From Pirellulales bacterium (GTDB lineage Bacteria > Planctomycetota > Planctomycetia > Pirellulales > PALSA-1355): a DNA stretch of 64,000 nucleotides. Position numbers and translations under genes: made by a program. The stretch spans positions 192,001 through 256,000 of the forward strand of contig CAVTBU010000009.1 of NCBI GenBank assembly GCA_963733035.1. The letters run 5' to 3'. Under the pieces are notes generated by a model. The model had not been told where the DNA came from. It ran no database searches and saw only the letters and a list, made by a program, of their open reading frames with translations. Shown in pieces: positions 14,615 to 34,396 of the stretch. The stretch's first letter is position 1, and each line of letters starts with the position of its first letter.

Positions 14615-15039
14615 CTACGTCCACAGGTTCCGGTCGAGCGTGCGGTAGTTGATCGCCTCGCTGATGTGCTCGGGACGGATCGACTCGCTGGACTCGATGT
14701 CGGCGATGGTACGGGCGAGGCGCAGGATTTTGTCGTGCGCCCGGGCCGAAAGGCCGAGTTCGGTCATCGTGGCGCGAAGGAGATTCATACAGGGGTCGTC
14801 CAAGGGGCAGAACTGCCGAATCTGCCGGTGCGTCATGCGGCCGTTGTGACGGGTGCCAGTTCCGGCGAAGCGAGCTTGTTGCACTTCGCGGGCGGCTTCC
14901 ACGACCTCGCGCATCTGGGCGCTGGAGGTGCCCGGCGTTTTCGCCGAAAGTTCGCGGAAGGGAACGGCCGGCACTTCGATTTGGATGTCGATGCGGTCGA
15001 GCAGGGGGCCGGAAATCTTGGCCATGTAGCGTTCGACTT
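14615..15039 (-). pseudogene. comM: 3' part of comM (YifB family Mg-chelatase-like AAA+ helicase), interrupted by the element
   Basis: VERYMAKISGPLLDRIDIQIEV … LGLSARAHDKILRLARTIAD; joins in frame to 33281-34396. Confidence 0.95.
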
Positions 15040-15057
15040 ACGGAACCTTAGAAAACC
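15009..15057. other. Left attachment junction (comM arm + TT core + element arm ACGGAACCTTAGAAAACC)
   Basis: comM homology ends at 15039; the element arm is the inverted counterpart of 33263-33280. Confidence 0.88.
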
Positions 15058-15231
15058 TTACGCCGGAAATGATCGAAGCTTTAGGGGTCATTGATCGGGT
15101 GTTCGACGGCTCGGCTATCCCCCAGGAGAAGCCACCCAGCCCCATGCCTAAGGCAATCTAACCGTTTCCGCCGCATTCGGGGCCACGGAGGGCGCGGGTG
15201 CACCACCTACGCAACAGGGAGATTGACGACG

Positions 15232-16014
15232 ATGTGTCTAGTTGAATCAATCGACCGGGCAATTGAGTTTGTCCGTGAACATGAGCTGCTAATGACGGAG
15301 GACGATGTGGATGAGCTAATACGGATCGCGGGCAGGGTCGTCGAGTTGGCTTTCCGCAGCGGCCTTCATTATGTTCTGCCGGGCATCGACATGCGTTCGC
15401 TGGTTGAATATCCCAGCGTGTCGGAGCCTCCCGTTGTATTGTCCGCCCTCAACGTGCCGGGCGATTGGAGTCGTGATGTTCTTAACCTGGAGGGTGAAAC
15501 ACTTGAACGTGCGTTTCTGCCGTGCGTGCCGGACCGTTGGTACGAAGCAATGATGATTCTACGATCTCTGGCCTGCCGTGACGCTCCTGCGGAGGAGCCG
15601 AACCAGCCCCAACCCAAGAAGCCCAAGGCAAAGGGCATGGGCCGAGAGGAGGTATTCAAGCGACTGGTGGAGCTGTGGCAGCAGGGAGAGCCGTTCACCA
15701 CTTGTGAGGAAATGGCTGAGCGGTTTGGTTGTTCTGATACCACCGTCCACCGAGCAATCCAGCGCAGTGAGAAGCTAAAGGCTTGGGCTGCGAAAGGGCC
15801 GAAGCGTACCCAACGGCTCGATGACGTAGTGCTAGACCGGACGGCTCAGAGCCGGGAGCCCGCACCGGACGATGACGCCCAATTGCGAGAATTGATTGAA
15901 CAGGCCGAACCGTCTTTGCGAGCATTCTTACACACAGTGCCACCCGAGAAACTGCGGCAGATGTCGGCCGATGATTTGAAGCAGCTAGTAGTCAATCCTG
16001 AGTGCAGAGCCTAG
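15232..16014 (+). CDS. HTH DNA-binding protein (putative element regulator)
   Basis: TCEEMAERFGCSDTTVHRAIQR helix-turn-helix; GGGAG upstream of ATG 15232. Confidence 0.65.
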   Translation: MCLVESIDRAIEFVREHELLMTEDDVDELIRIAGRVVELAFRSGLHYVLPGIDMRSLVEYPSVSEPPVVLSALNVPGDWSRDVLNLEGETLERAFLPCVPDRWYEAMMILRSLACRDAPAEEPNQPQPKKPKAKGMGREEVFKRLVELWQQGEPFTTCEEMAERFGCSDTTVHRAIQRSEKLKAWAAKGPKRTQRLDDVVLDRTAQSREPAPDDDAQLRELIEQAEPSLRAFLHTVPPEKLRQMSADDLKQLVVNPECRA

Positions 16015-16021
16015 GCCCAGC

Positions 16022-16085
16022 AGAAACGTTTCTCAGGCATTTCTCCGCAAAAACACGGCATTTCTAGCAAAAACCGGAAACGTTT
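16022..16085. promoter_or_regulatory. Operator-like array: two AAACGTTT palindromes around two GGCATTTCT-N1-2-GCAAAAAC direct repeats
   Basis: AGAAACGTTTCT 16022-16033; repeats at 16036-16054 and 16057-16074; GAAACGTTT 16077-16085. Confidence 0.55.
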
Positions 16086-16133
16086 ACCACCTATAGAGGC
16101 CCGCGATTTTGGGCTGGAAAGGATTGGTGAACG

Positions 16134-16355
16134 ATGAACGACGGTACTGCTCCCCGGCTGCGTACGCCGGGCATTATCGCTGTGGAGTTAAAGGCTCCAC
16201 TCTCCCGAGTGCTCTACGTCTTACGCACTCGCCCCCACATTCGTCCGGCTGCCTACGCTGGCACGATCCGCCTCTACCGCGAAGACGCTGTGGCGATGGT
16301 CCGCCATGAGCTCAACGCGATTGACTCTAGAAAGGGGGGCCGAAGCGATGCCTAA
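16134..16355 (+). CDS. Small HTH protein, excisionase/AlpA-like
   Basis: 73 aa, TPGIIAVEL…RVLYVL…RLY pattern; overlaps the start of the helicase gene. Confidence 0.55.
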   Translation: MNDGTAPRLRTPGIIAVELKAPLSRVLYVLRTRPHIRPAAYAGTIRLYREDAVAMVRHELNAIDSRKGGRSDA

Positions 16356-17943
16356 GCGTGACGACTGCAGGAGGGAAGACCCTATTGCGAAGCGGCCCGA
16401 GTTCAAAAAACGCCTCAAAGAAGCTGAACTGGCATACCAGGTGCGTGACAAGAGGAGCATAGGTGAAGAGCTTACGCCAGAGGAAGAAGACATCTACCTG
16501 TTGGACGTTGCTCGACGTACGGAGCAAGCCCTATCCAAGAGAGATCCAAACGCCAAGTCACCGGCTCGTGCACCACTCCTCACGAGGCGGACGAAACACG
16601 ACTCAACCGATGAGCAAAAACTAGATCGGCTCCGACGTGAATGTGCGGAGTTTAACGGACCACCGACCCTTGGCCCGCACGGTGACCTGCGCACGATGGC
16701 CCAGGTGTTGGCTTTGCTTCAACATGCCACGCCATTGCGTGACGCGTTCCTGGAGGGAGTTGGTATTCCACCGTCCGCTCTCTCAGTCCGTGTTTGTGAC
16801 CGACTATCCCACGGGATTTTGGAGGATCTTGACCGCACGGAGGCGTCAGGAATCTGGGATATACCCTGGGAGAAGCTAGAGATTGATCGCCAGGAACGTC
16901 GTCCACGCCAAGGCATCAACACCCGTCGATTGTCGGACGTTTTGGCCCATGAAGTCGAATGGCAGTGGCCAGGCGTGACCGCCCTAGGAAAGTTGACCCT
17001 GTTCAGCGGCAATCCAGGCGTGGGTAAGACCTGGCTGGCGTTGGATATCATAGCCCGACTTACAACCGGTCGCCCTTTTCCGCTCCAGGCGAATCCGCCC
17101 AACGTTGACCGTAAATTTCCAAAGGGTGAATTACTTGTCGGCGGGTCAATCCGGCGCAATGCGTTGTTCATAAGTGCGGAAGACGCAGACGAAGATACCG
17201 TCAAGCCACGAATCGAGCTACTTGGTGGCGATTCGACGCGGATTCACACGTTGGACTTCATTTTTGAGAACCGCAATAGAAGAACCCTCTCGCTCGCGGA
17301 CCATATCAACTATTTAGACAAGTGGCTCTTTTCTGAGCCGATGGTTGAACTCGTGGTGATTGACCCGCTAACCGCGTTCCTGGGGAAAACAGACAGTCAC
17401 AAGAACGCGGACGTGCGAGCCGTCTTGGAGCCGTTATCGAAAGTGGCGGAAAAACGACGCGTAGCCATCATCGGCGTCAACCATCTCACCAAGGGAACGG
17501 AAGGATCAGCCGTACATCGCTCGATGGGCTCGATTGGCTTTATGGCTGCTGCCCGAGTCGCATGGCAAGTCACTGCCGATCCTGATGAGCCAGACCGTAG
17601 CCTAATGCTGCCCGTCAAGGTCAACATCGGGAAGACCCCACGGGGCTTAGCGTTTCGGCTCAGCGAAACGACCGGCATCGAGTGGGAACAGGAAAGCATT
17701 GATCTGACCGCTGACGAAGCCCTCAACGGACCACGCGAGAGCAAGCTTGACGACGCTAAGGACTTCTTGCGCAACCTGCTGCGAGAGGGGCCAATGCCTG
17801 CGACGGCGGTGGAGGACGCAGCCGCGAAGGCAAGAATCTTCGGATCGACACTCAAGACCGCCAAACGGCAACTCGGCATCAAGTCCGAAAAGAGCCCGGC
17901 ACCGAACGGCGGTTGGGAGTGGCGGCTACCGGAGCGTCGGTAA
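16348..17943 (+). CDS. AAA (RepA/AAA_25-type) replicative helicase of the element
   Basis: Walker A GNPGVGKT, ISAED, Walker B LVVIDPL, NHLTK, GSIGFMAAAR; RBS AAGGGGG before ATG 16348. Confidence 0.85.
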   Translation: MPKRDDCRREDPIAKRPEFKKRLKEAELAYQVRDKRSIGEELTPEEEDIYLLDVARRTEQALSKRDPNAKSPARAPLLTRRTKHDSTDEQKLDRLRRECAEFNGPPTLGPHGDLRTMAQVLALLQHATPLRDAFLEGVGIPPSALSVRVCDRLSHGILEDLDRTEASGIWDIPWEKLEIDRQERRPRQGINTRRLSDVLAHEVEWQWPGVTALGKLTLFSGNPGVGKTWLALDIIARLTTGRPFPLQANPPNVDRKFPKGELLVGGSIRRNALFISAEDADEDTVKPRIELLGGDSTRIHTLDFIFENRNRRTLSLADHINYLDKWLFSEPMVELVVIDPLTAFLGKTDSHKNADVRAVLEPLSKVAEKRRVAIIGVNHLTKGTEGSAVHRSMGSIGFMAAARVAWQVTADPDEPDRSLMLPVKVNIGKTPRGLAFRLSETTGIEWEQESIDLTADEALNGPRESKLDDAKDFLRNLLREGPMPATAVEDAAAKARIFGSTLKTAKRQLGIKSEKSPAPNGGWEWRLPERR

Positions 17944-17954
17944 TGCTATCCCGC

Positions 17955-18114
17955 GACCCCTTCACCCCCTTCGACTCCTTCGACAAATCTCCCACAAAAT
18001 TTGGGGGTAATCGAAGAAGGTGGTTTCACCCCCTTCGACTCCTTCAACTCACCAATTTTTGAAGGGGGTGAAGAAGGTGAAGGGGACGAAGGGGGTGAAG
18101 AAGACGAAGAAAGT
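17955..18114. repeat. Putative replication origin: convergent arrays of 9-bp iterons (ACCCCCTTC / GAAGGGGGT)
   Basis: Exact 21-bp repeat TTCACCCCCTTCGACTCCTTC at 17961-17981 and 18025-18045; six GAAG-led 9-mers in reverse orientation at 18061-18114; A/T runs between them; immediately after the helicase gene. Confidence 0.7.
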
Positions 18115-18226
18115 TACCCCCATCGCACACCCGGACTGACACCCTTGTTGCCTTCCCCCAGGAAGCAGTCGCTAGACGACGCTTGTGAAGGTTGCGAAGC
18201 AAACTGACCAACGGAGAAACACCGCG

Positions 18227-18445
18227 ATGACTGAACGACTCGCTAGGTACGAAGAGTTGCTGAAACGGGCTCGCCTAAATGTCCTGCTGCTACGGCGGGA
18301 GATTCTGCGAGTGGAGCGGGCGATGGGCAAAGGACTGCCCCCGCTCGACATAGAGCCTTGGCGTGTAGAGGTTTTGGACATGCGACGGATTGAGAAAGTG
18401 ATTCTGGGCCTAATCGAGTTGGAGAAAAACCGCACGCAGACTTGA
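18227..18445 (+). CDS. Small hypothetical coiled-coil protein
   Basis: GGAGA RBS, 72 aa MTERLARYEELL…. Confidence 0.55.
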   Translation: MTERLARYEELLKRARLNVLLLRREILRVERAMGKGLPPLDIEPWRVEVLDMRRIEKVILGLIELEKNRTQT

Positions 18446-18533
18446 CTTCCTGAATGGGGACATACGATTGTTATTAGCGTATAACCCACTTGGGTGGTTA
18501 GATATCCCCTCATTCATAGGAGAGACTAGCGAG

Positions 18534-19139
18534 ATGGCTATAGACTATTCAAAGTTGATTGGGAAGCGTTCAAAGTTGATCCCCATCGTCCCAACTTCGG
18601 ACCTGTACTTAGCGAACCTGGCAAGAGACTGCGCCGACGGGCACCGCTTCGCCAGAATCTTTAGGGATACATGGCGTCAGATTCCATTGGGGGATCGGCG
18701 GCGAATGGTGAAGCATTGGCACACCGATGAAAGAATGGATTCTGGCTGGTCCCACCCGCGTATATCGCGGAGGATGGAGCGGGAAAGATTTCCCATCTCG
18801 CGTTCTGATTACATTGCGAGTATCCAGCTAATTGCGGGCTGGAATAAAGAATATATCTACCCACACTATCTACCGGACGACGCCGAACATTGCGGTGCGT
18901 TTGTCACTGTCGCCGCAATGGGTCATAAGTTATGGTTCCACGCGCCATCGGTTGCACGGATGCCGGACAATGTTGTGGCGAACTTGATAGCCAAGGGGCT
19001 GGCTCATGTGTATCAGTGGGCGACAGAGCCGGAGCTGTTTGACGATCCAGATGACCCAGGCAACACGGAGTACCTTGAAGGGGACGCCAACCAGAAAGTT
19101 GAGAGTTGGGGCTTTGAACTGTACTCGATTGAGGAATAG
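18534..19139 (+). CDS. Hypothetical protein with degenerate zincin-like motif
   Basis: AGGAGA RBS; LIAKGLAHVYQ…EGDAN resembles HExxH…E with the first His and the Glu replaced. Confidence 0.55.
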   Translation: MAIDYSKLIGKRSKLIPIVPTSDLYLANLARDCADGHRFARIFRDTWRQIPLGDRRRMVKHWHTDERMDSGWSHPRISRRMERERFPISRSDYIASIQLIAGWNKEYIYPHYLPDDAEHCGAFVTVAAMGHKLWFHAPSVARMPDNVVANLIAKGLAHVYQWATEPELFDDPDDPGNTEYLEGDANQKVESWGFELYSIEE

Positions 19140-19165
19140 CTGCACTCCCGAGCTGGATGAATCGA

Positions 19166-19206
19166 CCATCTACAGAATCCAACAACCCACTACGCCTACC
19201 CCTAGC
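19166..19206 (+). repeat. 41-bp direct repeat, copy 1 (CCATCTACAGAATCCAACAACCCACTACGCCTACCCCTAGC)
   Basis: Identical to 26873-26913. Confidence 0.95.
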
Positions 19207-19261
19207 ACTCACGGCTGGCGAATCGCTTCGCTTTATCGTGTTGCAGTCAATGAAGTGCCTG

Positions 19262-20449
19262 TCAGTCTGCATCGCCAAACGCGAGCAGCTCACCGCCTTT
19301 GCTTAGAAACAGCAGTTTCCCATTGGTCATCAAACCTTCGATTCGCTCGCTATCGGAAGCACCGATCTTCCATTTCAATTCGCCGTTGGCTGCGTCTAGC
19401 CCGTAGAGCTGGCCGTACAAGGTGGCAACATATACCAACCCGCCACCGAGAAGAGGCGGATCATAAATCGGCGCACCATGACCTGGAACATAATCGCATT
19501 TGAATTTCCAGATCATCTTGCCAGTTTCTGCGTTGAGTCGATAGACGCTCCCGTTGAGGGATCCAAAAAATACAGCGTCGCCTTGCACGGCGGCAGCGGC
19601 TTCCACCTCGAAGCCGCAATGGAAATCCCATTTAACCAGGCCAGTTTCCCTGTCAAGGCAATACAAACGCCTATCCTTTGAACCGATATACACATACTTT
19701 TCAGTGACAACAGGATTGCCGTAAATCCAACCCTTGGTCTGAAAGGACCATTTTACCTGCGCCGTCTCGCAATTAATGGCAACGATTCGCGACTGATCAA
19801 AGATAGGCTGAAACAAGGTCTTTCCATCGGTGGCCGGCATCCTGGGCCTGGCTCCATCAGCGCCAATTCGGCCTCGCCTAGCATCGAAACCGGGCGGCGA
19901 CGGTGGTGCGTCCTTCAGCAAGTCGACAGTCCACTTGCAAACGCCAGACTTTGCATCAAATGCATAGACTAAGCCGTCTTCCGCCATGAAAACCAACAAA
20001 TCGCCGATCATCACCGGCACGAAACCTTGTGAGCCCGTCTCCCGTGTCCAAACCACGTTGCCGTTGGAGGTGTTAATCGCGACCACGTATTTCTCCGTCA
20101 AAAAGTACGCAACGTCGGCCATGACCAAAGATAATTTCAGTGGCGCTGCGTACGCTGGGCAGTTTGCATACCGTAGCAATGTTCCGTCAGAAGCTCGGCA
20201 TGAGCTCAGCTGCTGGCGATCCACCGAATAAAGGAGGTCGCCAGCAGGAATCACGTTCGTTCCATGCTGTCTCCAGACAACCTTTGGTTCGTGTTCCAAT
20301 TTCAGTCTCGAATCGCAATTCGTTCTGGCTTGGTCCACTTGCAAAATCGCATCCGCGCCATAAAGTAGCGCCCTCGCATCGAGAGTAAATGACAAGGCCA
20401 TGGCAAGAGCCACACTTGTGTAACGTGCGGGCCGCTTAGTGTTCAGCAT
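19262..20449 (-). CDS. PQQ-like (BamB-type) beta-propeller repeat protein, exported
   Basis: Repeated xxYAxDxxTGxxxW blades; signal-peptide-like N-terminus. Confidence 0.85.
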   Translation of the reverse strand: MLNTKRPARYTSVALAMALSFTLDARALLYGADAILQVDQARTNCDSRLKLEHEPKVVWRQHGTNVIPAGDLLYSVDRQQLSSCRASDGTLLRYANCPAYAAPLKLSLVMADVAYFLTEKYVVAINTSNGNVVWTRETGSQGFVPVMIGDLLVFMAEDGLVYAFDAKSGVCKWTVDLLKDAPPSPPGFDARRGRIGADGARPRMPATDGKTLFQPIFDQSRIVAINCETAQVKWSFQTKGWIYGNPVVTEKYVYIGSKDRRLYCLDRETGLVKWDFHCGFEVEAAAAVQGDAVFFGSLNGSVYRLNAETGKMIWKFKCDYVPGHGAPIYDPPLLGGGLVYVATLYGQLYGLDAANGELKWKIGASDSERIEGLMTNGKLLFLSKGGELLAFGDAD

Positions 20450-20643
20450 GACGATTTTCCCCAAGGTGATTAACGAGCCAAGCGAAGAGAGCTCAGCGAC
20501 AAAAGATCCTGGCAAAGATCACTATAGCGAAGGTGCGCCGAGCGGTAAGTGGGCTGCCTACCCTTGACCGCCAAGCTGCTCCCGAGCGGCAACACCACGG
20601 AGATCAGAAACAGCATTCCGCGGTCTTGCAAATCTCGGGACTC

Positions 20644-20662
20644 ACAACCCACTACGCCCACC
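20644..20662 (+). repeat. Partial third copy of the 41-bp repeat
   Basis: ACAACCCACTACGCCCACC vs ACAACCCACTACGCCTACC (18/19). Confidence 0.75.
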
Positions 20663-20700
20663 TCAATCCAGCTCCTCTCGCACGTTAGTTATAGGGCTCA

Positions 20701-20733
20701 GTAAGTCGAACGCTACATGGCCAAGATTTCCGG
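20701..20733 (+). repeat. 33-bp perfect inverted copy of the left att junction (comM fragment + TT core)
   Basis: GTAAGTCGAACGCTACATGGCCAAGATTTCCGG is the reverse complement of 15009-15041. Confidence 0.95.
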
Positions 20734-22299
20734 GGCGTTGGTGACAGGTTCCTGGTTTCGCATCCAGACGATGCCGCGCTCCAGTCGGTACTTGGACCGC
20801 TTGCCCCAGGGTCGCTTATCCGTGAAGATGTCCACGCGCGAGATTGACCCGCGGAAGAATTGCCGCAGTAGATGTGGATCGGCTTTCGTGGCAGCCTCCC
20901 TGAAGCGTCCAAACCACTCTAGAGCAGCTTCGACCCTCCTGTCTATGTCATCGCCCTTCGTGCGTGAATTGGACGCACAGGACGCCAGACGGGCTTCTGC
21001 AGCCACACGTTGTCGACGCAATCCTCTGATCTGCTCTTGTACGTCGTCAAGCAGATCGGCGTCGACTTCCACCAGACGTTGCTTGGCCTTGGCCAGCTTC
21101 GCCTCGATGGCATCAAGTTCACGACGCAGTGCCTGCGGCTCGGGTTCCCGTTTCAGTTCCTTCAGTTGGCGTCTCATCGAGGATGCCAACTGCGCCAGGG
21201 TCTCGGGGTTGTAGTACCGTTCCTGCAGGCCATCCAGCACGCCGGCAACGATTTCATTCTGGCGTAGGGTGTTGCGGTCGCAGTACGTCTTCCCGTGCTG
21301 GCGGTATCCGTAGCAGGTGTAGTGGTGCTTGCCGTTCGACAAATCGCCGATCATCTTGTGCCCACACTTGCCACAGCGCAGCACTCCCGAGAGTACGAAA
21401 CCACCGCCGCTTGGGTGCGGTGTGGAGCAGTTCCTGCGCTCGGCCAACTGCTGCTGCACCCGGTCGAACGTATCCCGGTCGATAATCGCCTCATGGTGAT
21501 CCTCGAAGACGATCCAGTCGGCCGCGTTGTTCCGTTGCTCGGGGCGGCCCTTCCGCTTGTATTTCGACATGCAGCGCATGTTCCAGATGTAGTCTCCCAC
21601 GTAGACCCGGTTGCGGAGCATTCCAGCGATTCCGTTCGCTGTCCAGCCCTTCCCCTTGGGTGATGGTCGGCCTGAGTTGTTCAGCTCGTCGGCCAGCCCG
21701 CGCAGGCTCTTGGCCGCTAGGTACTCGGTGAAGAGCCAACGAACGAGCGCGACATCCTCTGTTGGCCCCAGCAAGAGTCGCTTATTGACCGCGACGTACC
21801 CCAACGCCGGCTTGCCGGATGCCCACAGGCCCTGCTCTGCGAGGCTAGTCATGCCGCGCGTGACATTCCTCGACAGATCGGTCAGGTATTGGTTCTTAGC
21901 CTCCTGCTGAATGCCGTACAGTACTCGACCAGCGAAGTCCCCCCAATCGATGAACCCTTGGGCGACGGTCGCGAGATGTACGCCAGCCCTGCGCAGTGGA
22001 AAGATCCAGTACCCAGCCTCGAGGGAATCAAATCGCCCGAACCGATCAATATCCCAACACAGGATCGCTTGGAACTTCCGGTGTTGTCCGTCTCTGACCA
22101 TCGCTTGGAATTCACGCCGCTTGTCGGTCGCATCGCCGCTGATTCCCTCGTCGATGTATTCACGAACGATGTGATAGCCGTTGGCCTTGGCGTACTTCTC
22201 GACTGCCGTCCGTTGGTCAGGAATCGAGGTTTCCTGTCGGTCGGTGCTCATGCGGTAGTAGGCCACCGCAGGGATGTAGTTTTCATTCGTCGCAATCAC
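20713..22299 (-). CDS. Large serine recombinase #1 (catalytic + recombinase + zinc-ribbon domains)
   Basis: YYRMSTDRQ (catalytic Ser), DEGISG, DRFGR, LSGVLRCGKCG, YTC…C, coiled coil; GGAGG RBS with GTG start. Confidence 0.93.
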   Translation of the reverse strand: MIATNENYIPAVAYYRMSTDRQETSIPDQRTAVEKYAKANGYHIVREYIDEGISGDATDKRREFQAMVRDGQHRKFQAILCWDIDRFGRFDSLEAGYWIFPLRRAGVHLATVAQGFIDWGDFAGRVLYGIQQEAKNQYLTDLSRNVTRGMTSLAEQGLWASGKPALGYVAVNKRLLLGPTEDVALVRWLFTEYLAAKSLRGLADELNNSGRPSPKGKGWTANGIAGMLRNRVYVGDYIWNMRCMSKYKRKGRPEQRNNAADWIVFEDHHEAIIDRDTFDRVQQQLAERRNCSTPHPSGGGFVLSGVLRCGKCGHKMIGDLSNGKHHYTCYGYRQHGKTYCDRNTLRQNEIVAGVLDGLQERYYNPETLAQLASSMRRQLKELKREPEPQALRRELDAIEAKLAKAKQRLVEVDADLLDDVQEQIRGLRRQRVAAEARLASCASNSRTKGDDIDRRVEAALEWFGRFREAATKADPHLLRQFFRGSISRVDIFTDKRPWGKRSKYRLERGIVWMRNQEPVTNAPEILAM

Positions 22300-22381
22300 A
22301 ATCCCGAGCCTCCATGGTTGAGATCAACAGTTGACATTGAGAAAACCAGATCGGCGACAATTCGTCAAGGAAACGCCACCG

Positions 22382-23047
22382 CTAGACCTCTCCCAATCTG
22401 TGGATTGAGTAATCCTCGACCTTATCCCAAAGGATGGTCACTACGCCGTTTTGCGTCATCACCGCAATGCCCGGATCGTTGTAGAGCACGTACCCGGTCG
22501 GCCCCGCGTCGTTATGACCGATGATAACCTTCCACTGCTGGGGAATCGGAACTTTGATGCCTTCAATGCGATGGAGTTCAATAAACCGTCCACTGTTTCG
22601 CAATTCGATGCACGCCTCAGAGAATTCCTCGAGTTGCGATACAGCCGACTTGGAGAGTTGCTGGTTCACAACTGTTTCTACTAGTCCAAGCGTTAATGCG
22701 CGACTCACGACGGACGTGAACGATCCAATAAAGAAGAGCCCGCTGCTGAAACCCTTGAACTTGGCTTCGATTTGCCGCTGGATGCGTTCAGCGGCACGTA
22801 CAAAGCCAACATCGAACATGAGGATTGCAGAACAGACGTGCTCACGACCGGAAACCATTCGTATTCTGGCCACGATGGGGTCCGGTGGGACGGGCTCAGC
22901 GAGTGGTGGCTCCATGCTACCGCCGACCATTTCGTCGGTAAGGCGGACAGGCTGTTTGCACGACGGACATGACACGACCCGGCCGACTAGTCTCTGGTCA
23001 TACTTAATGCGTCGGCCACACATGGGACAATTCGTTGTGGCACTCAT
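22382..23047 (-). CDS. Hypothetical protein with N-terminal zinc ribbon
   Basis: CPMC…CPSC, Pro-rich linker, hydrophobic segment. Confidence 0.6.
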   Translation of the reverse strand: MSATTNCPMCGRRIKYDQRLVGRVVSCPSCKQPVRLTDEMVGGSMEPPLAEPVPPDPIVARIRMVSGREHVCSAILMFDVGFVRAAERIQRQIEAKFKGFSSGLFFIGSFTSVVSRALTLGLVETVVNQQLSKSAVSQLEEFSEACIELRNSGRFIELHRIEGIKVPIPQQWKVIIGHNDAGPTGYVLYNDPGIAVMTQNGVVTILWDKVEDYSIHRLGEV

Positions 23048-25830: not shown

Positions 25831-26036
25831 CAGTCGAGCACCTCCACTCGCTCAGCACGCGGGCCACGGCCGGTGTCCTTGCCCAGCTCGAACTCGACGC
25901 GCTTACCGACGAGGTCGCTATTGAGTCTGCACCGGACGAGCGCGGAATGATGAAAGAATACGTCCTTGCTGATGTCCGCGCAGACGATGAAACCGAAACC
26001 GTACAGGTCTTTCACTGCCGAAACCAAACCCGTCAC
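25830..26036 (-). CDS. Cold-shock domain (OB-fold) protein
   Basis: YGFGFI (RNP1), DVFFHHSAL (RNP2), VEFE…GPRA; GGAGG RBS with GTG at 26036. Confidence 0.8.
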   Translation of the reverse strand: MTGLVSAVKDLYGFGFIVCADISKDVFFHHSALVRCRLNSDLVGKRVEFELGKDTGRGPRAERVEVLD

Positions 26037-26154
26037 CGCGATGGCCCTCCGATAGTGTTTCGTGGCGGGCCGCAGTCGCCGAACTACGGACCCGCCGCAC
26101 GGCCGAGGCAACTCAATCAAGCCGTGATTTCCTTGTTAGTTTGCTACGCCTGGT

Positions 26155-26866
26155 TCAGCTGGCGTCACCGCTCGACATGATGGCGAACTGCTCATCGCCC
26201 TGTGCCACGCCGAAGTCGTGGTAGCCACGCCATTGCATGCCCAGGGTGTTGAAGTCGGTCTGGCTGGACTCGATGGTCGGAACCGCGCGGCCGTTCAGGA
26301 GGGCGACCACGATTGCAGAACCAATTGAAGGTTCGGACATCAGGAACCACACAGTGCTGCTCTGGTTGCTGATTCCGCTGCCGTCCGGCTTCTTGATGCC
26401 GGTCACGTCCAGGTACTTGCTCTTCACGGGACGGTAGCGGCCTTGGTAGATGTTCTCGGTGCCGATCTGCGATCCGTTCGCGTCGACCGACAGTAGGGTC
26501 GTCTGTCGATACAGATTCGTCGCGGTGACGATCTGGGCAGTGCCCGTGAGCAGGATGGCTGGATCGGCCATAATCGGCTTTCCTCCTGCACCGGTGAACT
26601 TGCCGAAGGCGATTTCCCCGGCCTCCAGGCCCCCGATCGACAGCACATCATCGATCAGGTTGTTGTTGCCGACCGAGAAGAAACTGCCCGTGTTCGACAG
26701 TAGGGTGTCGTACACCTCCGATTCGATGGCCCAAACAGCACCATCAGCCAGACCGTTGAGCACCTGACGGAAGGCGTCCAGGTCGTCGTTGATGATGTGC
26801 CGGCGGTCGAGCGAAAGCATCCGCCCGCGGGTCTCCGCCTGCACGGTACGCTTCGAGTCCGACAGC
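26155..26866 (-). pseudogene. C-terminal fragment of a phage major capsid protein (Mu gpT-like), 5' truncated
   Basis: TRGRMLSLDRRHIINDDLDAF…LNGRAVPTIE…LGMQWRGYHDFGV; the frame is closed by TAG just upstream, next to the 41-bp repeat. Confidence 0.75.
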
Positions 26867-26872
26867 TATTCT

Positions 26873-26913
26873 CCATCTACAGAATCCAACAACCCACTAC
26901 GCCTACCCCTAGC
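26873..26913 (+). repeat. 41-bp direct repeat, copy 2
   Basis: Identical to 19166-19206; about 200 bp upstream of the resolvase. Confidence 0.95.
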
Positions 26914-27039
26914 CGAAACCGCAGCTGATCCTCGCCCGGATCGTAAAGCGTCAATGTCGCTGCGCTAGCCCCGTCGATTCCCGAGCGTTCTGCCCCTAGC
27001 TGCCCCCTCTGACCGTAACGTTTCGGCTCTAGTCGATAA

Positions 27040-27070
27040 TTTACTACGTGTGTGGTAGAGCGTAGACTAA
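27040..27070 (+). promoter_or_regulatory. Putative sigma70 promoter (TTTACT-N17-TAGACT) with operator-like spacer
   Basis: 24/31 identical to 27770-27800. Confidence 0.6.
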
Positions 27071-27114
27071 GGGTAACGGTACGTATGTTCACTACGATAC
27101 AGGAGGGGCGAACC

Positions 27115-27714
27115 ATGAAGCATATTGCGATCTACTTGCGGGTATCCACGACCGGACAGGACACGAAAAGCCAGCTACCCGACCTGGAACGATGGGCTGC
27201 GGCTCAATCCGATCCGGTCAAGTTCTACAGCGACAAGGCGAGCGGTAAGACGATGGACCGGCCGGGCTGGGCGAAGCTAGAGGCAGCGATTCGACAGGGC
27301 CGCGTTAAGGCTGTCGTAGTGTGGAGGATTGATCGACTCGGCCGCACCGCCAAAGGGCTTACTGCGCTGTTCGACGAACTACGCGAGCGGAAGATCAACC
27401 TAGTCTCGCTACGCGATGGCCTGGACCTATCGACCCCGGCCGGGCGGTTGATGGCGAACGTGCTTGCGTCTGTGGCTCAGTATGAAACCGAAGTGCGGGG
27501 CGAGCGAGTAGCAGCCGGGCAAGCCAAAGCACGGTCGCAGGGCAAGCGTTGGGGCGGCTCGCAACCGGGAGTGCGGAAGAAGGTCACCGATACGCAGCTC
27601 AAGGCTATCCACTCGATGCGTGCGAACGGCGAGCGTATCACCCATATCGCCACCGCTCTGGGGCTCTCTCGGCCCACGATCTATGCCGTCCTACGCGAGC
27701 CCGCAGCAGCGTAA
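27115..27714 (+). CDS. Small serine recombinase (resolvase/invertase family) with C-terminal HTH
   Basis: YLRVST, DKASG, RPG, DRLGR, DLSTPAGRLM, AQYE, LGLSRPTIY; AGGAGG RBS. Confidence 0.93.
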   Translation: MKHIAIYLRVSTTGQDTKSQLPDLERWAAAQSDPVKFYSDKASGKTMDRPGWAKLEAAIRQGRVKAVVVWRIDRLGRTAKGLTALFDELRERKINLVSLRDGLDLSTPAGRLMANVLASVAQYETEVRGERVAAGQAKARSQGKRWGGSQPGVRKKVTDTQLKAIHSMRANGERITHIATALGLSRPTIYAVLREPAAA

Positions 27715-27769
27715 AGTGAGGGCCGAGTGGAGCCTACGAAATACCCCGCAGATACTGGGCAGATAACGG

Positions 27770-27800
27770 TTTACTACAAGTGTGGTAGTAGCTAGGCTAA
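27770..27800 (+). promoter_or_regulatory. Putative sigma70 promoter (TTTACT-N17-TAGGCT) for the terminase operon
   Basis: Near-duplicate of 27040-27070. Confidence 0.6.
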
Positions 27801-27824
27801 TAGTAAGCGATGGGGGTATAAGCA

Positions 27825-28220
27825 ATGCCCAGAGTCAGCAGGGGCACCCGAACCAACCAAAGCCATAAGGGCCGAGTCTTGCCTCCCAAGTACACAGCCG
27901 GGTTTCTCACAACGCTGGACGGCCGCACTGAGTTGGCCCGTGGTCTACGCGAGCGGTTTGACTCGATTGTGGCCGATCTGGGCGGACCCGGAGAGCTATC
28001 GCAAATCAAGGCATCGCTGGTTGAACGGTTTGTCTGGCTGGAAGCATCGTTGATGAGCATCGAAGCAGCGATGGCCGAGACGACCGACCCGAAGCAGTAT
28101 GCCGACCTAGTTGCCCGCTGGACTCAGGCTTGCAACACGCTGCTAGGCATCGGTAAGTCGCTCGGCATTGACCGCAAGCTTGGCTCGGCGCCTTGGCTGG
28201 CGGAGGCTAAGCAAACATGA
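27825..28220 (+). CDS. Putative terminase small subunit
   Basis: 131 aa helical protein (DGRT…DLGG…LGIDR), ATGA-coupled to the terminase large subunit; call rests mainly on position. Confidence 0.55.
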   Translation: MPRVSRGTRTNQSHKGRVLPPKYTAGFLTTLDGRTELARGLRERFDSIVADLGGPGELSQIKASLVERFVWLEASLMSIEAAMAETTDPKQYADLVARWTQACNTLLGIGKSLGIDRKLGSAPWLAEAKQT

Positions 28221-29845
28221 TCGACGCCCAACAGTACCAGCTCTATGCCTCCAATCCGGCTGCCTTCCGCGATGATCTCAACGTAGAGGTAAGCGGCTCG
28301 GTCTGTCGCTTCGGTGATATCCAGGACGACTGGCAGCGTCGTGACTTTGAATCCCTAGACCCGGCTTGGCTGCGCTGTACAGGCAGGGACCACGGCGACA
28401 ACGCAATACGGACACGCGGCTACCTGGAACGCGGACGCGGACACTCCAAGACAACCGACCTAGCGATGATGGCCATCTGGGCCTTGGCGTTCGCCACTCG
28501 CTCACTGCGGGGCTACTGCTTCGCTGCCGACAAGGATCAAGCCGCGTTGCTCCACGATGCGATGCGTACGCTCGTGCGCTTGAATCCCTGGCTGGCTGAG
28601 ATCCTAGAAGTTCAGCGGGAACAGGTTGTAAACGTCGCACAAGACCATCGGGGCAACGGGAGCCGATTAACGATCTTCACCAGTGACGTCGGATCGTCCT
28701 ACGGTATCCTCCCGGACTTCATCATTGCCGACGAACTAACGCACTGGGCTGGTGATGGCTCGCTCTGGTACTCGATCATCAGCTCTGCCGCCAAGCAGAC
28801 GAATTGCGTGCTGGTCGTTATCTCCAACGCGGGTTTCGTCGACTCATGGCAGTGGAACGTCCGGGAAGCGGCTCGCAACGATCCTAGCTGGATCTTCTCT
28901 CGGCTCGATGGGCCAAGGGCTTCTTGGCTGACCAAAGATCGACTAGCCGAACAACGGCGCATGCTTCCGCCCATAGCGTATGACCGGCTGTGGGGAAACC
29001 GTTGGAGTTCAGGCGGTGGCGATGCCTTAACGGAGGAGGATATCCAGGCCGCATTCGACAACAACCTGCGGCCGATGACCGGTCGTGAATCAGATTGGGT
29101 ATTCGTAGCGGGACTGGATTTAGGGCTCAAGCGTGACGGCTCGGCCGTGGTTGTACTGGCGGCACCGGTCAACGGTCGCAACGGCGGTAGGATTCGCCTA
29201 GCTCATCATCAACTCTGGCGTCCTCAGGATTCAGGCGGCAAGGTCAAGCTGACGGAAATCGAAGACCATATCAAAAAGTTGGATCGGCGGTTTAACCTGC
29301 GATGCGTTGGCTTCGATCCATGGCAAGCCGAACACATGGCCCAACGCCTGGAAGTCCATTCCCGGCACCGTAGCCGCAGCTCTCGCTTTCGCTCGATAGA
29401 TGGGCCCTGGATGCGGGAGGTACCGCCCACAGGCGGCAACCTTCGCACAATCGCCAACCTAACCATCGAGACGTTCACGGATCGTCGGTTAATGCTCTTC
29501 GACTGTCCGCCGTTGGAGCGTGACCTACGCAAGCTGCGAGCGGAAGAGAAGAGCTACGGCGTTCGCCTTACCAGCCCACGCGATGAACATGGCCACGGCG
29601 ATAGCTTCACAGCCCTTGCCAATGCCTTGCTGCTGGCCCATGAGATAGCCGGTGAAAAGGTAATCACGCTCCAGGCTTGGGGCAGCGGGATGCCGTACGA
29701 CGATGGCGATGAGGAAGACGACCGGCACGCGATTGACGACTACCTGGAAGAAATGGAGTACCTGGAGAGCTTGCCTGATGGACCAGAGCGAGTGATTCGA
29801 GGCATCGAACACTGGGAGAACAACACGAATGACCCACTACTTTGA
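28217..29845 (+). CDS. Terminase large subunit
   Basis: Walker A RGRGHSKTT, AADKDQA, Walker B FIIADE, ISNAG coupling motif, nuclease AGLDLG…FDPW…HGD. Confidence 0.85.
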   Translation: MIDAQQYQLYASNPAAFRDDLNVEVSGSVCRFGDIQDDWQRRDFESLDPAWLRCTGRDHGDNAIRTRGYLERGRGHSKTTDLAMMAIWALAFATRSLRGYCFAADKDQAALLHDAMRTLVRLNPWLAEILEVQREQVVNVAQDHRGNGSRLTIFTSDVGSSYGILPDFIIADELTHWAGDGSLWYSIISSAAKQTNCVLVVISNAGFVDSWQWNVREAARNDPSWIFSRLDGPRASWLTKDRLAEQRRMLPPIAYDRLWGNRWSSGGGDALTEEDIQAAFDNNLRPMTGRESDWVFVAGLDLGLKRDGSAVVVLAAPVNGRNGGRIRLAHHQLWRPQDSGGKVKLTEIEDHIKKLDRRFNLRCVGFDPWQAEHMAQRLEVHSRHRSRSSRFRSIDGPWMREVPPTGGNLRTIANLTIETFTDRRLMLFDCPPLERDLRKLRAEEKSYGVRLTSPRDEHGHGDSFTALANALLLAHEIAGEKVITLQAWGSGMPYDDGDEEDDRHAIDDYLEEMEYLESLPDGPERVIRGIEHWENNTNDPLL

Positions 29846-30311
29846 ACGTATGGCTAAAGAGGCCGAACACTTCTATGCATTTACAGACCGCATGGGTTCT
29901 GAGCCGGTGTTTGCCGGGGGATGGTGGTACTTCAAGAACGGGGCTGTAAGCGATGGTTTCCGGTCGCATCACGAACCGCCAGAAGACCCTAACGAATTGC
30001 TCAAGAACCGATACCGCTATGCCGTCACAAGACTCGACGAGCTGCTAGACCTATACATCCACAACAAAAAAGTGATCGCCGAGCAAATTGACATCCATCG
30101 CATGGGGGCAGGACCAATGCCCGCGTCGGGCTGGGACGACGGGATGAAATCGCTCCGATCAAAAGTCCAGGTCGCTAGGGCCGTCGTCCGCTTGCTGTTG
30201 AAGAGACACCTACCGGACGAACAACCTGATGACGATTACGACAAGAACGAAGCACGGCGAGAGCTGACAGACAGCGCCCGTCGCACACTCGTCAAACTAG
30301 AGCGAGAGTAG
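29829..30311 (+). CDS. Hypothetical protein
   Basis: 160 aa, overlaps the terL end, inside the operon. Confidence 0.6.
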   Translation: MTHYFERMAKEAEHFYAFTDRMGSEPVFAGGWWYFKNGAVSDGFRSHHEPPEDPNELLKNRYRYAVTRLDELLDLYIHNKKVIAEQIDIHRMGAGPMPASGWDDGMKSLRSKVQVARAVVRLLLKRHLPDEQPDDDYDKNEARRELTDSARRTLVKLERE

Positions 30312-30315
30312 AGGC

Positions 30316-31149
30316 ATGCTGACGCTTACCGTCAACCTGACCGCCGCAGCTCGCAGCGAATCAATCAACGGACGGCCCTACCTGGTCGCTCCAATGACGT
30401 TGATCGTGCCGGGAGTCTTGAACGGCAGCAGGGGCCCGTTGCTCTATCCGCCCGAAGAGATTGAACGGAGCGTAGCGGCCTGGAACGGTGTACCGCTCGT
30501 GTTGGGCCACCCTCGCAACAGCAATGGCGTTCCTATCTCGGCTCGCTCGCTGGAGATTCTGAACCGGATCGGCCTAGGTTTCGTCCAGGGAGCCCGCACG
30601 GAGAACGGCAAGCTGATGGCGGAAGGCTGGTTTGATGTAATCCGCATGAAAGAAGTCCATCCAGCGGCCCTTGCTCGACTTCAAGGCGGACTACCGCTTG
30701 AACTGAGTACGGGGCTCAACACCGACAACTATCGGGCCACGCCTGGATCAACCTACAACGGCCGAGCCTACCATGCCGTGGCTCGCAACTACGAACCCGA
30801 CCACCTAGCAATCCTGCCGGAAGACAAAGGAGCCTGTTCCCTTAACGACGGATGTGGAGTCCTAAACATGCGATATGAAGATTTCAACCAATACCCCCAA
30901 CAGCTTGTTCACAACGGAGTGGTCTACCAGCCGGTAGGTCCAGTAGCCAACGACCTGAATGAAGAGCTGCTGGAAGAGCCGACGATCAACTGGCGGGAGT
31001 GGGCCGGCTGGGAAGATCCCAAGCCCGCAGCTCAGCCTTGCTCGAATCGTGCCGCAACAGAGAACGTCCAAGCTGATCCGAACGACATCAACGCCGAGAA
31101 GCTTGAAGAGGCGGATATCAACTGGGCCGAGTGGGCGAAAGGGAATTGA
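30316..31149 (+). CDS. DUF2213-like phage head protein (prohead protease/scaffold-like)
   Basis: GVLNG, WNGVPLVLGHP, ELSTG, PDHLAILP…GACS…DGCG. Confidence 0.75.
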   Translation: MLTLTVNLTAAARSESINGRPYLVAPMTLIVPGVLNGSRGPLLYPPEEIERSVAAWNGVPLVLGHPRNSNGVPISARSLEILNRIGLGFVQGARTENGKLMAEGWFDVIRMKEVHPAALARLQGGLPLELSTGLNTDNYRATPGSTYNGRAYHAVARNYEPDHLAILPEDKGACSLNDGCGVLNMRYEDFNQYPQQLVHNGVVYQPVGPVANDLNEELLEEPTINWREWAGWEDPKPAAQPCSNRAATENVQADPNDINAEKLEEADINWAEWAKGN

Positions 31150-31207
31150 ACACGAACACAGGCGGCAAGTCAGAGCGGGAGTTGTTCCCTGACTCGCTCC
31201 TTCGCCG

Positions 31208-31518
31208 CTGAGGGGTCGGGTTGGACTTTCCTCATTGGTCTGCCCGGCCCCTCGGAAAACAACTAAGCGGGGCTTTACGTCCGTGGGTTCTGCTTGGGGG
31301 TAACGACCGGGCTGCCGGGAGCGTATCCGGTGGCTCGGTCGTCTAAATCAATTGTGACTTTTACGCCTCCTTTACCGCACATGGGGGCAGGCGAATAATT
31401 CCGAAATGGCGGCACGTGTCGGACTAATTACCCGATGCGGGCTATCTCTCTAGCGACTTCAGATAGCCAGCCGCCTGTTTTTCTCTTACCCGAAGTCGCG
31501 GAAGTCGCGGAAGTCGTA
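31208..31518 (+). ncRNA. Candidate structured RNA or long integrase leader
   Basis: Hairpins 31208-31255 and 31303-31342 whose non-Watson-Crick pairs are G-U on the + strand; hairpin GGCTATCT/AGATAGCC at ~31440-31468; tandem GAAGTCGCG x2 + GAAGTCGTA before the ATG. Confidence 0.4.
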
Positions 31519-31520
31519 CC

Positions 31521-33284
31521 ATGTCCAAGAAGCTGATGCCGGCCGCAGGCTACCTTCGTAAGTCAACGGCTGGAGAAGGTAAGGAAGGTAAAGAGCGTCA
31601 AGAAAAGTCCATCCCTACTCAAAAGGCTGAGATTGAAAAGCTGGCCAAGGCAGAGGGCTACAAGATCGTTCGCTGGTACGCCGATCCCGGCATCAGCGGA
31701 TGGAAGAGGGGCGTCAAGCGTCCAGACTTTACCCGGATGATTGCCGAAGCGCAGCAGCTTCGGGATATCCAAGCCATCGTCTGCGACGACATCGACCGAT
31801 TTAGCCGTGCGGATATGGATGAGGTCCAAGCTGATGTGTTCGCTCTGAAACAGGCGGGAGTTCAGTACATCATTACCGCAGCCCAAGGCGTCTATGACCT
31901 GGGCAGCCACGGCACTGACTTCGGTAAGGTTGTAAAGTTCATGGCCGACGTGTGGGGCTCGAATCAATTCAGTCGCAAACTGTCTCGCCGGATAGCTCGG
32001 GCTCGCCGTGATGCCGCTAGGGAAGGCAAGCGGAGCGGGGGAAGTGCCCCGTACGGCTTGGCCAACGACGGTAAGGGCGGGCTGAAATTTGGTAAGCGTT
32101 CTGAGGTGAAGATCGTTCGCCGTATCTTCGATGAATTCGTCAAGCAGCTTAGCTCGATGAACGCCATCGCCAGCCGACTCAATGCCGACAAGATACCTGC
32201 CCCCAGGGGTGGCGTCTGGCATGTCGCCACGGTGCGTGATTTACTCATGCAGCCAGCCTACGCGGGAGAGTTCACCTACAACCGCAAGCAATCCGGCCAG
32301 TTTCATATTCTTAACGAGTCGGGGGAAGTGGTTGAGGCAACTCCCGAGACTCGTAAGAACCACTGGAAACTGAACGACGCAGCGGTTATCTCCAAGCCAA
32401 AAGCCCACAAGCCTCTCGTTGATCGGACGGTGTTCAACGCGGCGCAGAAGCGGCTCGCCAGCTTCAGCCTCAAGGGAAATCGACGCCCACGTGAGAATGG
32501 CTACCCGCTGGCTGGTATTTTGATCTGCGACCATTGCGGCAAGCCCATGTACGGCTGTCATCAGAAGGGTCGCAATTACCGCGTGTACCGCTGTAGCACC
32601 CCCGGCAAGTCCGGGATGGGAACATGCGGCGCATACGAGATTCGTGAAGAGCGCATTTTGCCCTTTGTACTACAGCTACTCGGGGAGGAACTGGAAAACT
32701 TTGACCCACTAATGGTTAATCCACCGGATGAGCTTCTCCCCTCAAACCGGGATGAAAAGCGGGCAGAACTACAGGAAGAACGTGATGCGTTGGCCAAGCG
32801 AATTGAACAGGCCGAAGAGAACCTGTTGTACGCTACTGATCCTCGCACCCGCAAAAATTTTGACGTACGGGTATGCCGGTTGCGGGCTGAGCTAGACCAA
32901 CTCGATGCACAACTGAATACCCCCACAACGCGGCGTGGCTTTACTGACGATGAAATCGAGGGGCTGAACACATTCTGGAATCGTTTTCATGAGGATGCCC
33001 TTTCAATGCCCATCCCAGACGGCCGAGCAGATCCGTGGTGGATCTGCTTCCAACGCCCAATGCACGATAGTGATGCGTGGGAGCGACACATTGCGGTAAG
33101 GCCACGACAGGTGAACGAGATACTACATATGCTGGGCGCAGAGGTGCGGCTCCGGTGGAATACCCAGCATGTCACCCTAGCCAACGGTAAGACCCAGAAC
33201 CGATACACTCTTTGCCGTGGCCGTTTCCGTTTGAGCCAAAAAGCTGGGAAAATACCACGTCCGGTTTTATCGTGTTCAGCTTGA
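31521..33284 (+). CDS. Large serine integrase #2 (cognate integrase; its 3' end spans the right att junction)
   Basis: [35 protein letters not shown]…C, coiled coil; the stop TGA overlaps comM sequence. Confidence 0.93.
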
Positions 33285-33300
33285 GGTAACGTGCAGTGGC
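33263..33300. other. Right attachment junction (element arm GGTTTTATCGTGTTCAGC + TT + comM arm)
   Basis: comM homology begins at ~33280; the arm is the inverted counterpart of 15040-15057. Confidence 0.88.
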
Positions 33301-34396
33301 AATCGCGGCGCGGGTCGTTGCGATATCCGCAAGGGCAGGGGTTCAGCGCCACCAACAGCATGAACCCGCAGGGAAAGGTGGTGCTCGAAAGCGCGCGGGA
33401 AATGGTGACGGTGCCGTCCTCAAGCGGTTGACGCAGAACTTCGAGCGTGCGGCGGTTGAACTCGGGGAGCTCATCGAGAAACAGCACCCCGTTATGCGAA
33501 AGCGAGATCTCGCCGGGCGTGGGCGTCGAGCCGCCACCGACCAGGCCGGCTTCGCTGATCGTGTGATGGGGTGCTCGGTAGGGACGCGTCGCCAACAGCG
33601 GTTGGCCGGCGCCGAGCAATCCCATCGCGCTGTAGATGCGGGTGGTTTCGATCGATTCGCTAGCGCTGAGCCTGGGCAAAATGGTGGGCACGCGTTTGGC
33701 GAGCATTGTCTTGCCGGAGCCCGGCGGGCCGAGCATCAGGAGATTGTGATTTCCACTGGCGGCGATGGTGACGGCGCGCTTGGCCATCTCCTGCCCGCGG
33801 ACATCAGCAAAGTCGACGTCGTAGGCCGAGTACTCGTCGAACCACTCGTTGAGCCGCGGCGGGGTTGGATCGATCTCGATGGCGCCAGTAAAGAAGGCCA
33901 CGGCTTGCGACAGGCTGGAGACGGCGATCACGTCGATACCCTCGACGACGGCTGCCTCGGCCGCGCTGGCCGTGGGGACAACCAGTCCTTGCAAGCCCGC
34001 CTGTCTGGCCGCGGCCATGGCCATCGACAGCGCGCCGCGGGTCGGGCGGGTGCCACCGTCGAGAGCCAACTCGCCCACCACGGCAAAGCGGTCGAAAAGG
34101 TCGGAGGCAATTTGTCCGCTGCCGGCCAAGATGCCCAGCGTAATCGGCAAGTCGAACGAAGCGGCCTGCTTGGGTAGTTCGGCCGGGGCCAGGTTGATCA
34201 CGATCCGGTCGTCGGGCCGCAGATAGCCCGAGTTGACCATGGCCCGTTCGACCCGATGGGTACTTTCCTTGACGGCGGCCTCGGGCAATCCGACCAGCAC
34301 GGTTTTCGGCAGAGCGCCTGGGGAAACGTCGACTTCGACCTCCACCGGCAAGGCCTCGATCCCCACCAGCGAGAAAGTGCGAAGCTTGGCAAGCAT
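33281..34396 (-). pseudogene. comM: 5' part of comM (Lon-like domain + AAA+ Walker A/B), interrupted
   Basis: [78 protein letters not shown]. Confidence 0.95.

Follow-up and report, generated by a model that had tools for sequence, protein, structure and literature searches.

Several elements that carry a large serine recombinase (LSR) lie within a host gene that is restored when they leave it, including A118 and phi10403S in comK of Listeria, SPbeta (recombinase SprA) in spsM, skin (SpoIVCA) in sigK and the XisF element of Anabaena. Here we describe a comparable arrangement in a 64,000-nt stretch of DNA from a Pirellulales bacterium (assembly GCA_963733035.1, contig CAVTBU010000009.1, positions 192,001 to 256,000), referred to below as the window and used for all coordinates, in which a phage-related element of 18.2 kb splits comM. 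Durrant et al. (2022; PMC10083194) report that 12.4% of predicted site-specific LSRs target a Mg-chelatase-like/ATP-dependent-protease gene, that diverse LSR clusters use this same gene and that DNA competence genes are enriched among the targets. The gene is also named 42 times in a paper on intragenomic conflicts and natural transformation (PMC11472951). As far as these sources go, insertion into comM is the commonest known class of LSR target, and the present locus is an ordinary new example with instructive details.

It is very probable, from the anatomy of the sequence, that a phage-related mosaic element was placed in comM by its own LSR, here termed LSR#2, through conservative site-specific recombination at an attachment site situated within the 3′ end of the LSR#2 gene itself. 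The features that carry this argument are as follows.

15040..33282, no strand assigned: inserted composite element, 18,243 bp, G+C 0.53-0.61 against 0.59-0.64 in the flanks
33283..34396, minus strand: comM 5′ fragment, codons 1-371, with ChlI and AAA/Mg_chelatase domains (TIGR00368 positions 4-363)
14615..15039, minus strand: comM 3′ fragment, codons 372-512 and stop, with the end of the AAA domain and Mg_chelatase_C (TIGR00368 positions 368-499)
15013..15064, plus strand: attL, made up of a host arm, the TT core at 15038-15039 and the element P′ arm (15040-15057, with GAAC and AAAACC boxes)
33256..33307, plus strand: attR, made up of the element P arm (33263-33280, with GGTTTT and GTTC boxes), the TT core at 33281-33282 and a host arm
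31521..33284, plus strand: LSR#2, a large serine recombinase of 587 aa with Resolvase, Recombinase and Zn_ribbon_recom domains

The split comM gene and its attachment sites

Scripted deletion of positions 15040-33282 (18,243 bp) joins the two comM fragments into a reading frame of 1,539 nt (512 aa) with a single terminal stop. The preliminary description of this DNA had claimed such a clean split, and its coordinates and sequence strings all check out. Both fragments are free of stops and frameshifts, and their matches to TIGR00368 (499 positions) and to the Pfam families ChlI, Mg_chelatase and Mg_chelatase_C identify the gene as a member of the YifB/ComM family. The 5′ fragment was searched for in 41 genomes, comprising the host's own (G000) and 40 relatives; 37 matched, and the best 20 loci, 19 of them from relatives, were compared. 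The comparison with intact relatives that had been suggested as a check reveals no missing or extra residues: in 18 of the 19 loci the protein reads ...CHCT(L/V)PQ followed by (I/V)ERYM... without a gap and with no residue gained or lost. The nineteenth locus, from the genome G003, is cut at the junction by a contig end.

The same search found one comM only in the host genome. Because this sole copy is interrupted and its 5′ fragment is left without the C-terminal domain, the gene is most likely without function for as long as it carries the element. Beyond the 5′ fragment its reading frame meets no stop for approximately 98 codons of element sequence, on the strand opposite to the integrase gene (window 32987-34447, minus strand), so a truncated ComM with a foreign tail could be made.

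The dinucleotide TT is found at both junctions (15038-15039 and 33281-33282), with a wider common identity of CTT, and no bases beyond the core are duplicated when the reading frame is rebuilt. Within the element arms, GGTTTT/AAAACC and GTTC/GAAC boxes are placed symmetrically about TT. The arms as a whole (33263-33280 and 15040-15057) form an imperfect inverted repeat in which 12 of 18 positions are complementary, for which the probability by chance is ∼4e-4. As a control, 200,000 random pairs of window positions averaged 4.7 matches, with 0.04% of them reaching 12, and equal palindromy occurred at just 39 of 63,800 window positions. Symmetry is much lower in the rebuilt host site, at 10/25, and in attL and attR, at 9/25 and 8/25. 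LSR sites are typically imperfect inverted repeats of about 40-50 bp whose 2-bp core is the same in attL and attR. Judged by these features, the layout is that of LSR-type attachment sites, and the earlier proposal that both attB and attP can be reconstructed stands, with a shared TT and arms that are symmetric at 12 of 18 positions.

The core corresponds to the second and third bases of the Gln371 codon of comM (window 33281-33283 / 15038-15039), which is CAA in the host and CAG in 15 of 20 related genes. Read on the sense strand, the dinucleotide is AA in the window, and among the 20 related genes (L002-L020, L029 and L049 as relatives) it is AG in 15, AA in four and TG in one. The cores of partner sites must match for an LSR to recombine them. 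The TT core of the element would accordingly find no acceptor site in most relatives, the examined congeners among them, since their own dinucleotides differ from it. A synonymous change at the wobble position of Gln371 would then decide which hosts the element can enter, an idea that we consider improbable when taken jointly with the integration-state sensor discussed below.

The integrase and the crossover site

LSR#2 contains the domains PF00239 (residues 8-170, E 7.8e-19), PF07508 (194-313) and PF13408 (329-386) and is full length relative to its family. It matches the PHROG 95 integrase (2.5e-87) and, in the PDB, structures of the SPbeta integrase (E 4e-13). The Y, R and S of the Y-x-R-x-S catalytic motif are invariant in a 73-sequence alignment that includes LSR#2. 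With respect to the coiled-coil insertion, the AlphaFold model of the homologue P0071, which is 41% identical to LSR#2, contains two long helices at residues 409-439 and 444-470.

The last seven codons of LSR#2 lie in the P arm, and its TGA stop is composed of the second T of the core and GA from comM. In the rebuilt attP the frame instead runs on for 40 codons, giving a protein of 627 aa. The protein database yielded 97 homologues besides the protein itself, at 30-56% identity and many from Planctomycetia/Planctomycetota sources. In 18 of these (E<=1e-3; 20 at E<=1e-2) the C-terminal tail is translated antisense comM that begins at or near the junction, while the other 77-79 have no comM-antisense match and many end soon past the junction, like the protein in the window. 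A further pattern is seen in four of the 97 (P0021, P0036, P0071 and P0081), and by eye in P0072, whose tails align with the extension predicted for the circle form (E 2.6e-4 for P0071, 0.08 for P0081 and 1.9 for P0021). These tails stand at the same distance from a conserved RFRLGQ block and have an IDRVFDG-like motif in common. The longest contigs encoding P0021, P0036 and P0081 are 9-11 kb, and that encoding P0071 is ∼3.9 kb.

Because homologue tails align with the extension across the rebuilt attP, the integrase gene of the unintegrated element continues naturally into what is now the left end, and the conserved tails constitute independent support for the reconstruction. That the gene starting at 31521 encodes the integrase, as the preliminary description had it, is borne out by a gene that spans the rebuilt attP and by homologue tails that read into antisense comM. 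With both gene fragments matching the YifB/ComM model and Pfam families, and 18 of 97 homologues reading out into antisense comM, LSR#2 can be assigned to the class of LSRs that target the Mg-chelatase/comM gene. Close relatives were sparse in the other collections. Among the 41 genomes (E<=1e-40), LSR#2 was found in G000 itself and as one 34% match in G036. Seven loci were found in genome contigs, the best being 45% identical and cut within the gene, and viral contigs gave no match. A search of the plasmid collection for close relatives matched 260 records, all below 60% identity.

The proposed course of events is as follows. A phage-related integrative element would have entered comM by conservative site-specific recombination. 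LSR#2 would have carried out the strand exchange at a core of two bases, TT on the plus strand of the window and AA at the end of the Gln371 codon. The sequence itself shows the exact junctions, the common core, the symmetry of the element arms and the use of this comM position across the integrase family. The attachment site lies inside the 3′ end of the integrase gene, such that the P arm codes for the last integrase residues and, upon integration, the core together with two comM bases supplies the integrase stop codon. The fossil junction described below records an earlier, tandem stage, in which an LSR#1-type element occupied a comM site ∼30 bp away while the TT site beside it held one of LSR#2 type. 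As both outer sites and LSR#2 are intact, precise excision of all 18.2 kb could still take place, provided that a directionality factor is present.

The remodelling of the integrase gene also allows a more far-reaching proposal. The free circle would encode a 627-aa integrase with the family-conserved tail, and the integrated copy a 587-aa form cut at the crossover, making the tail a built-in sensor of the integration state. If this were true, the enzyme would be biased towards integration when free and silenced, or handed to a partner, when integrated; directionality would then be controlled at one more level than that of a separate directionality factor. We regard this as speculative and improbable. 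Conservation of the tail could also reflect a constraint at the DNA level near the left end of the element. In the AlphaFold model of P0071 (mean pLDDT 89.3), the tail at residues 596-613 scores below 50 and therefore carries no information on its structural role. A literature search found no specific report of an LSR gene that spans attP, which is not proof that none has been published.

Composition of the element and the use of comM by related elements

A point missed in the preliminary description is that the element is not a single unit. It is a mosaic, in which three serine recombinases are found together with a fossil junction and a capsid gene that is truncated. Its remaining features, from left to right, are these.

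15091..16014, plus strand: HTH-domain protein, a left-end regulatory candidate with a weak HTH_11 match
16306..17943, plus strand: AAA_25 / primase-helicase-like replication protein, by domain and profile matches
17952..18111, no strand assigned: cluster of direct and inverted repeats of 9-24 nt directly after the AAA_25 replication gene, with TTCACCCCCTTCGAC-type words and their complements
19166..19206, plus strand: left copy of a 41-bp direct repeat, identical to 26873-26913
19262..20515, minus strand: PQQ-like beta-propeller protein (cargo), by domain match
20701..20733, minus strand: fossil junction, 33 nt, an exact inverted copy of 15009-15041
20713..22299, minus strand: LSR#1, a large serine recombinase of 528 aa whose last six codons and stop lie within the 29 comM-derived nt
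25830..26120, minus strand: cold-shock-domain protein, by domain and profile matches
26155..26844, minus strand: phage capsid gene fragment, with ∼74 N-terminal profile positions missing, ending at the right 41-bp repeat
26873..26913, plus strand: right copy of the 41-bp direct repeat, situated upstream of the gene for the small serine recombinase at a distance of ∼140-200 bp
27052..27714, plus strand: small serine recombinase (resolvase/invertase type), by domain and profile matches
27825..28220, plus strand: 131-aa protein, conserved beside the terminase in related cassettes
28217..29845, plus strand: terminase large subunit (TerL), by domain and profile matches
30316..31149, plus strand: DUF2213 / prohead-protease-like protein, by domain and profile matches

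The 41-bp repeats bracket an inner block of 7,707 bp, which holds the PQQ-propeller gene, the fossil junction, LSR#1, small unknown open reading frames (ORFs), the cold-shock gene and the capsid fragment. Just two copies of the repeat exist in the genome, along with a 14-nt partial copy at 20645-20658; searches of the related cassettes and of the rest of the genome found no other. Whether the repeat serves as a site for the neighbouring small recombinase is a matter of guesswork. Without the block and one repeat unit, the core of the element measures 10,536 bp and comprises the genes for the HTH protein, the AAA_25 replication protein, the small serine recombinase, the 131-aa protein, TerL, the DUF2213 protease-like protein and LSR#2. 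The repeat cluster at 17952-18111 could possibly represent iterons or an origin, and the 131-aa protein would, by its position, correspond to a small terminase. Matches to TerL in the phage collection were confined to six records, with identities of at most 27.5%.

A cassette of small recombinase, 131-aa protein, TerL, two to three ORFs and LSR also occurs in the genomes G016 and G003, where it is without the 7.7-kb block. In G016 it forms a 12.7-kb element within comM (L030, G016:C87:557-13297) that has no portal or capsid match, and in G003 it lies on contig C17 and adjoins an amidohydrolase gene, not comM. The placement of the LSR at the end abutting the comM 5′ piece, reading outward, is likewise found in G016 and in the metagenome contig L049.

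Contig L049 also sheds light on LSR#1. On it, an LSR#1 homologue (66% identical, residues 123-528) runs antisense into the 5′ part of comM, which is unbroken through the TT position and is fused to the integrase after ...YMAKISG, at CCGG. Among the 119 LSR#1 homologues listed, of 750 found, four have comM-antisense tails that start ∼30 nt earlier than those of the LSR#2 family (116-125 vs 148-150 on a common scale). The L049 protein itself (P0108) ends like the LSR#1 of the window, and the other 114 listed homologues show no such tail. From the CCGG junction of L049 and these earlier tail starts, it follows that two LSR clades use two comM sites ∼30 bp apart. Three listed homologues (P0182, P0185 and P0193) have precomputed Pfam domains from competence proteins, DprA in two and Mg_chelatase_C in one. 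These fusions probably represent read-through at dprA and comM junctions, and the LSR#1 clade would accordingly target several competence genes. A search for LSR#1 among 401 genomes of the phylum (E<=1e-60, three candidates scored per genome) returned G000 alone, and in viral contigs two matches of 24-25% identity were found.

The fossil junction consists of 29 nt of comM, the core and 2 nt, after which a diverged P′-like arm follows at 20689-20700. We interpret it as the right end of an LSR#1-type element that is separated by 29 bp of comM from the left junction of an element of LSR#2 type. Its 29 nt are identical to the host comM, and differ at two to three positions from those of G003 and L049, for which reason the tandem array probably formed in this lineage.

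The statement in the preliminary description that comM is a recurrent integration hotspot is confirmed in print (Durrant et al., 2022) and by five break points seen in comM within this family: the TT site, the CCGG site and three further positions. In G016 the gene is broken at about aa 220, with the shared core CATCAGCA, and in G014 (L074/L075) two contigs overlap by 126 nt, one of which starts at the same place in comM as the G016 break. Breaks are found at about aa 257, between RIYSA and MGLL, in G006 (L076/L077) and at about aa 350, within NPCPCG, in G023 (L073). The TT site itself is marked in the congener G003, in which the end of contig C24 (L029) and the start of contig C5 (L028) share 119 nt, and C5 starts exactly at the core, which there reads CT. 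These two contigs alone hold the 119-mer, as no third G003 contig with it was found. The assembly of G003 has 30 contigs in 6.4 Mb, and since a break at the very core base is unlikely to arise by chance in so few contigs, the assembly branch suggests that occupied and empty comM sites coexist in the sample.

Outside the element, comM is neighboured in the window by a gene for a 1,096-aa repeat-rich secreted protein (11280-14570, minus strand) and one for a 374-aa protein with a PEP-CTERM-like anchor at its end (34666-35790, plus strand), both read from their translations.

Alternative explanations and comparison with known systems

The role given to LSR#2 has to be weighed against the other recombinases of the element and against the quality of the assembly. 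With three serine recombinases present, and with relatives of LSR#1 also residing in comM, insertion could in principle have been carried out by LSR#1 (20713-22299) or by the small serine recombinase (27052-27714). However, LSR#1-type junctions lie ∼30 nt away, at CCGG, with the distinct tail starts given above, and LSR#1 is internal and inverted. The small enzyme is without the recombinase and zinc-ribbon domains for recognition of attachment sites, and it is the LSR#2 gene itself that spans the rebuilt attP. Insertion by a recombinase other than LSR#2 is thus very unlikely. An assembly artefact, in which the element was mis-joined into comM, has nothing specific in its favour other than that the genome is a 10-contig draft, and it would leave unexplained why both junctions fall at the same dinucleotide, why the exact ORF is rebuilt, why the stop codon of the integrase arises right at the junction and why integrase relatives have the same junction; we find it scarcely credible.

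Integration by LSR#2 as proposed here also has several observations weighing against it. LSRs catalyse recombination of attP with attB, and the reverse reaction needs a directionality factor. No such factor was recognised in the element, and no copy of either rebuilt junction, searched as attB and attP 30-mers, is present in the 10-contig assembly. In the collections searched, relatives of LSR#2 reached 56% identity at most, and as a result there is no second natural instance of the LSR#2/site pair. Family searches, in which many ORFs were without a family, recognised no portal, tail or lysis genes in the element; on this account, and given the truncated capsid gene, it falls short of a complete phage and may be in decay. 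In addition, canonical integration, excision and a single inversion were each tried as the origin of the inner block, and the present order is not derivable from them.

Decay of this sort is the substance of the more serious alternative, namely that the insertion occurred as described and the mosaic is now an immobile relic, with comM lost for good in the lineage. The truncated capsid gene, the unrecognised portal, tail and lysis genes, the internal rearrangement including the fossil junction, and the lack of a second copy or free form in the assembly all fit such a relic. Against this, LSR#2 is full length (587 aa) and keeps the invariant catalytic residues, the outer attachment sites are intact and symmetric, and the comM pieces are without decay. 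Similar small cassettes moreover recur in other genomes, so the loss of structural genes may be a normal, satellite-like state. We take the relic to be a substantial possibility, although not the one we would favour. At the other extreme, the element might be a regulatory switch, whose controlled excision and re-integration turn ComM and natural transformation on and off as do the comK prophage of Listeria and SPbeta and skin of Bacillus. Precise excision in silico restores an intact comM ORF, neither comM piece contains a stop or a frameshift, LSR#2 and the two outer sites have remained intact, the assembly of G003 breaks exactly at the site, as expected of coexisting occupied and empty sites, and the genome retains DprA and ComEC homologues. 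Nevertheless, neither an empty-site nor a circle junction is present in the assembly, no directionality factor or regulator was recognised, the G003 break may reflect a mixture of strains, and DprA and ComEC also match in non-competent control genomes such as E. coli, which leaves them little weight. Natural transformation has not been established in the host organism, nor, to our knowledge, has competence in planctomycetes. The wide targeting of competence genes by LSRs, to the extent that the published account describes it, is at least as well explained by the gain to the element from blocking transformation, or by conservation of the site. A switch is consequently unlikely, and what is left once switch and relic are set apart falls to a still-mobile element without a regulatory role in its host.

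The significance of the locus is correspondingly modest. As far as the published surveys extend, it extends the well-documented group of comM-targeting serine integrases by a planctomycete clade. Since attB and attP are defined to the base, they could be tried out for orthogonal integration in this phylum, for which genetic tools are few; as a genome-engineering tool, the value of this integrase and its sites is generic to thousands of predicted LSR/att sets. Some modest use may be made of the two sites ∼30 bp apart and the fossil of tandem occupancy in considering how elements share or compete for one target, and of the crossover at a synonymous codon position and the integrase gene remodelled by integration. 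The locus opens no new question, and a role as a competence switch stays hypothetical.

Of the systems to which the element can be compared, those in comK, spsM and sigK and that of XisF have in common with it that an LSR-bearing element interrupts an ORF and that precise excision, which here was performed in silico, leaves the gene intact. They differ in that regulated excision and a physiological role have been shown for them, whereas the present case is one of sequence anatomy; the match of the XisF model to the window is far below the cut-off. The SCC composites at rlmH are composite or tandem islands at one attachment site. Like them, this element places more than one recombinase-bearing unit in one target gene and has internal hybrid junctions, but it involves two cores ∼30 bp apart, and of its two units the second lies within the first as a fragment that is truncated and inverted.

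Phage satellites such as PICI are small islands with integrase, replication and packaging-redirection genes, without virion structural or lysis genes, and depend on a helper phage. The core of ∼10.5 kb resembles them in having an integrase, a replication protein, a regulator and packaging genes, in its unrecognised portal, tail and lysis genes and in the recurrence of its cassette in other genomes, a likeness drawn from gene content alone. It is unlike them in possessing a large terminase and a serine rather than a tyrosine integrase, and the element as a whole also carries a capsid fragment.

The closest counterpart is the class reported by Durrant et al. (2022), in which, as here, an LSR element lies inside a Mg-chelatase-like coding sequence with precise attachment sites. 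From that class, so far as the report describes it, the present element is set apart by its planctomycete host, by an LSR#2 that is at most 56% identical to any protein found, and by the two LSR clades ∼30 bp apart together with a preserved fossil of their tandem occupancy.

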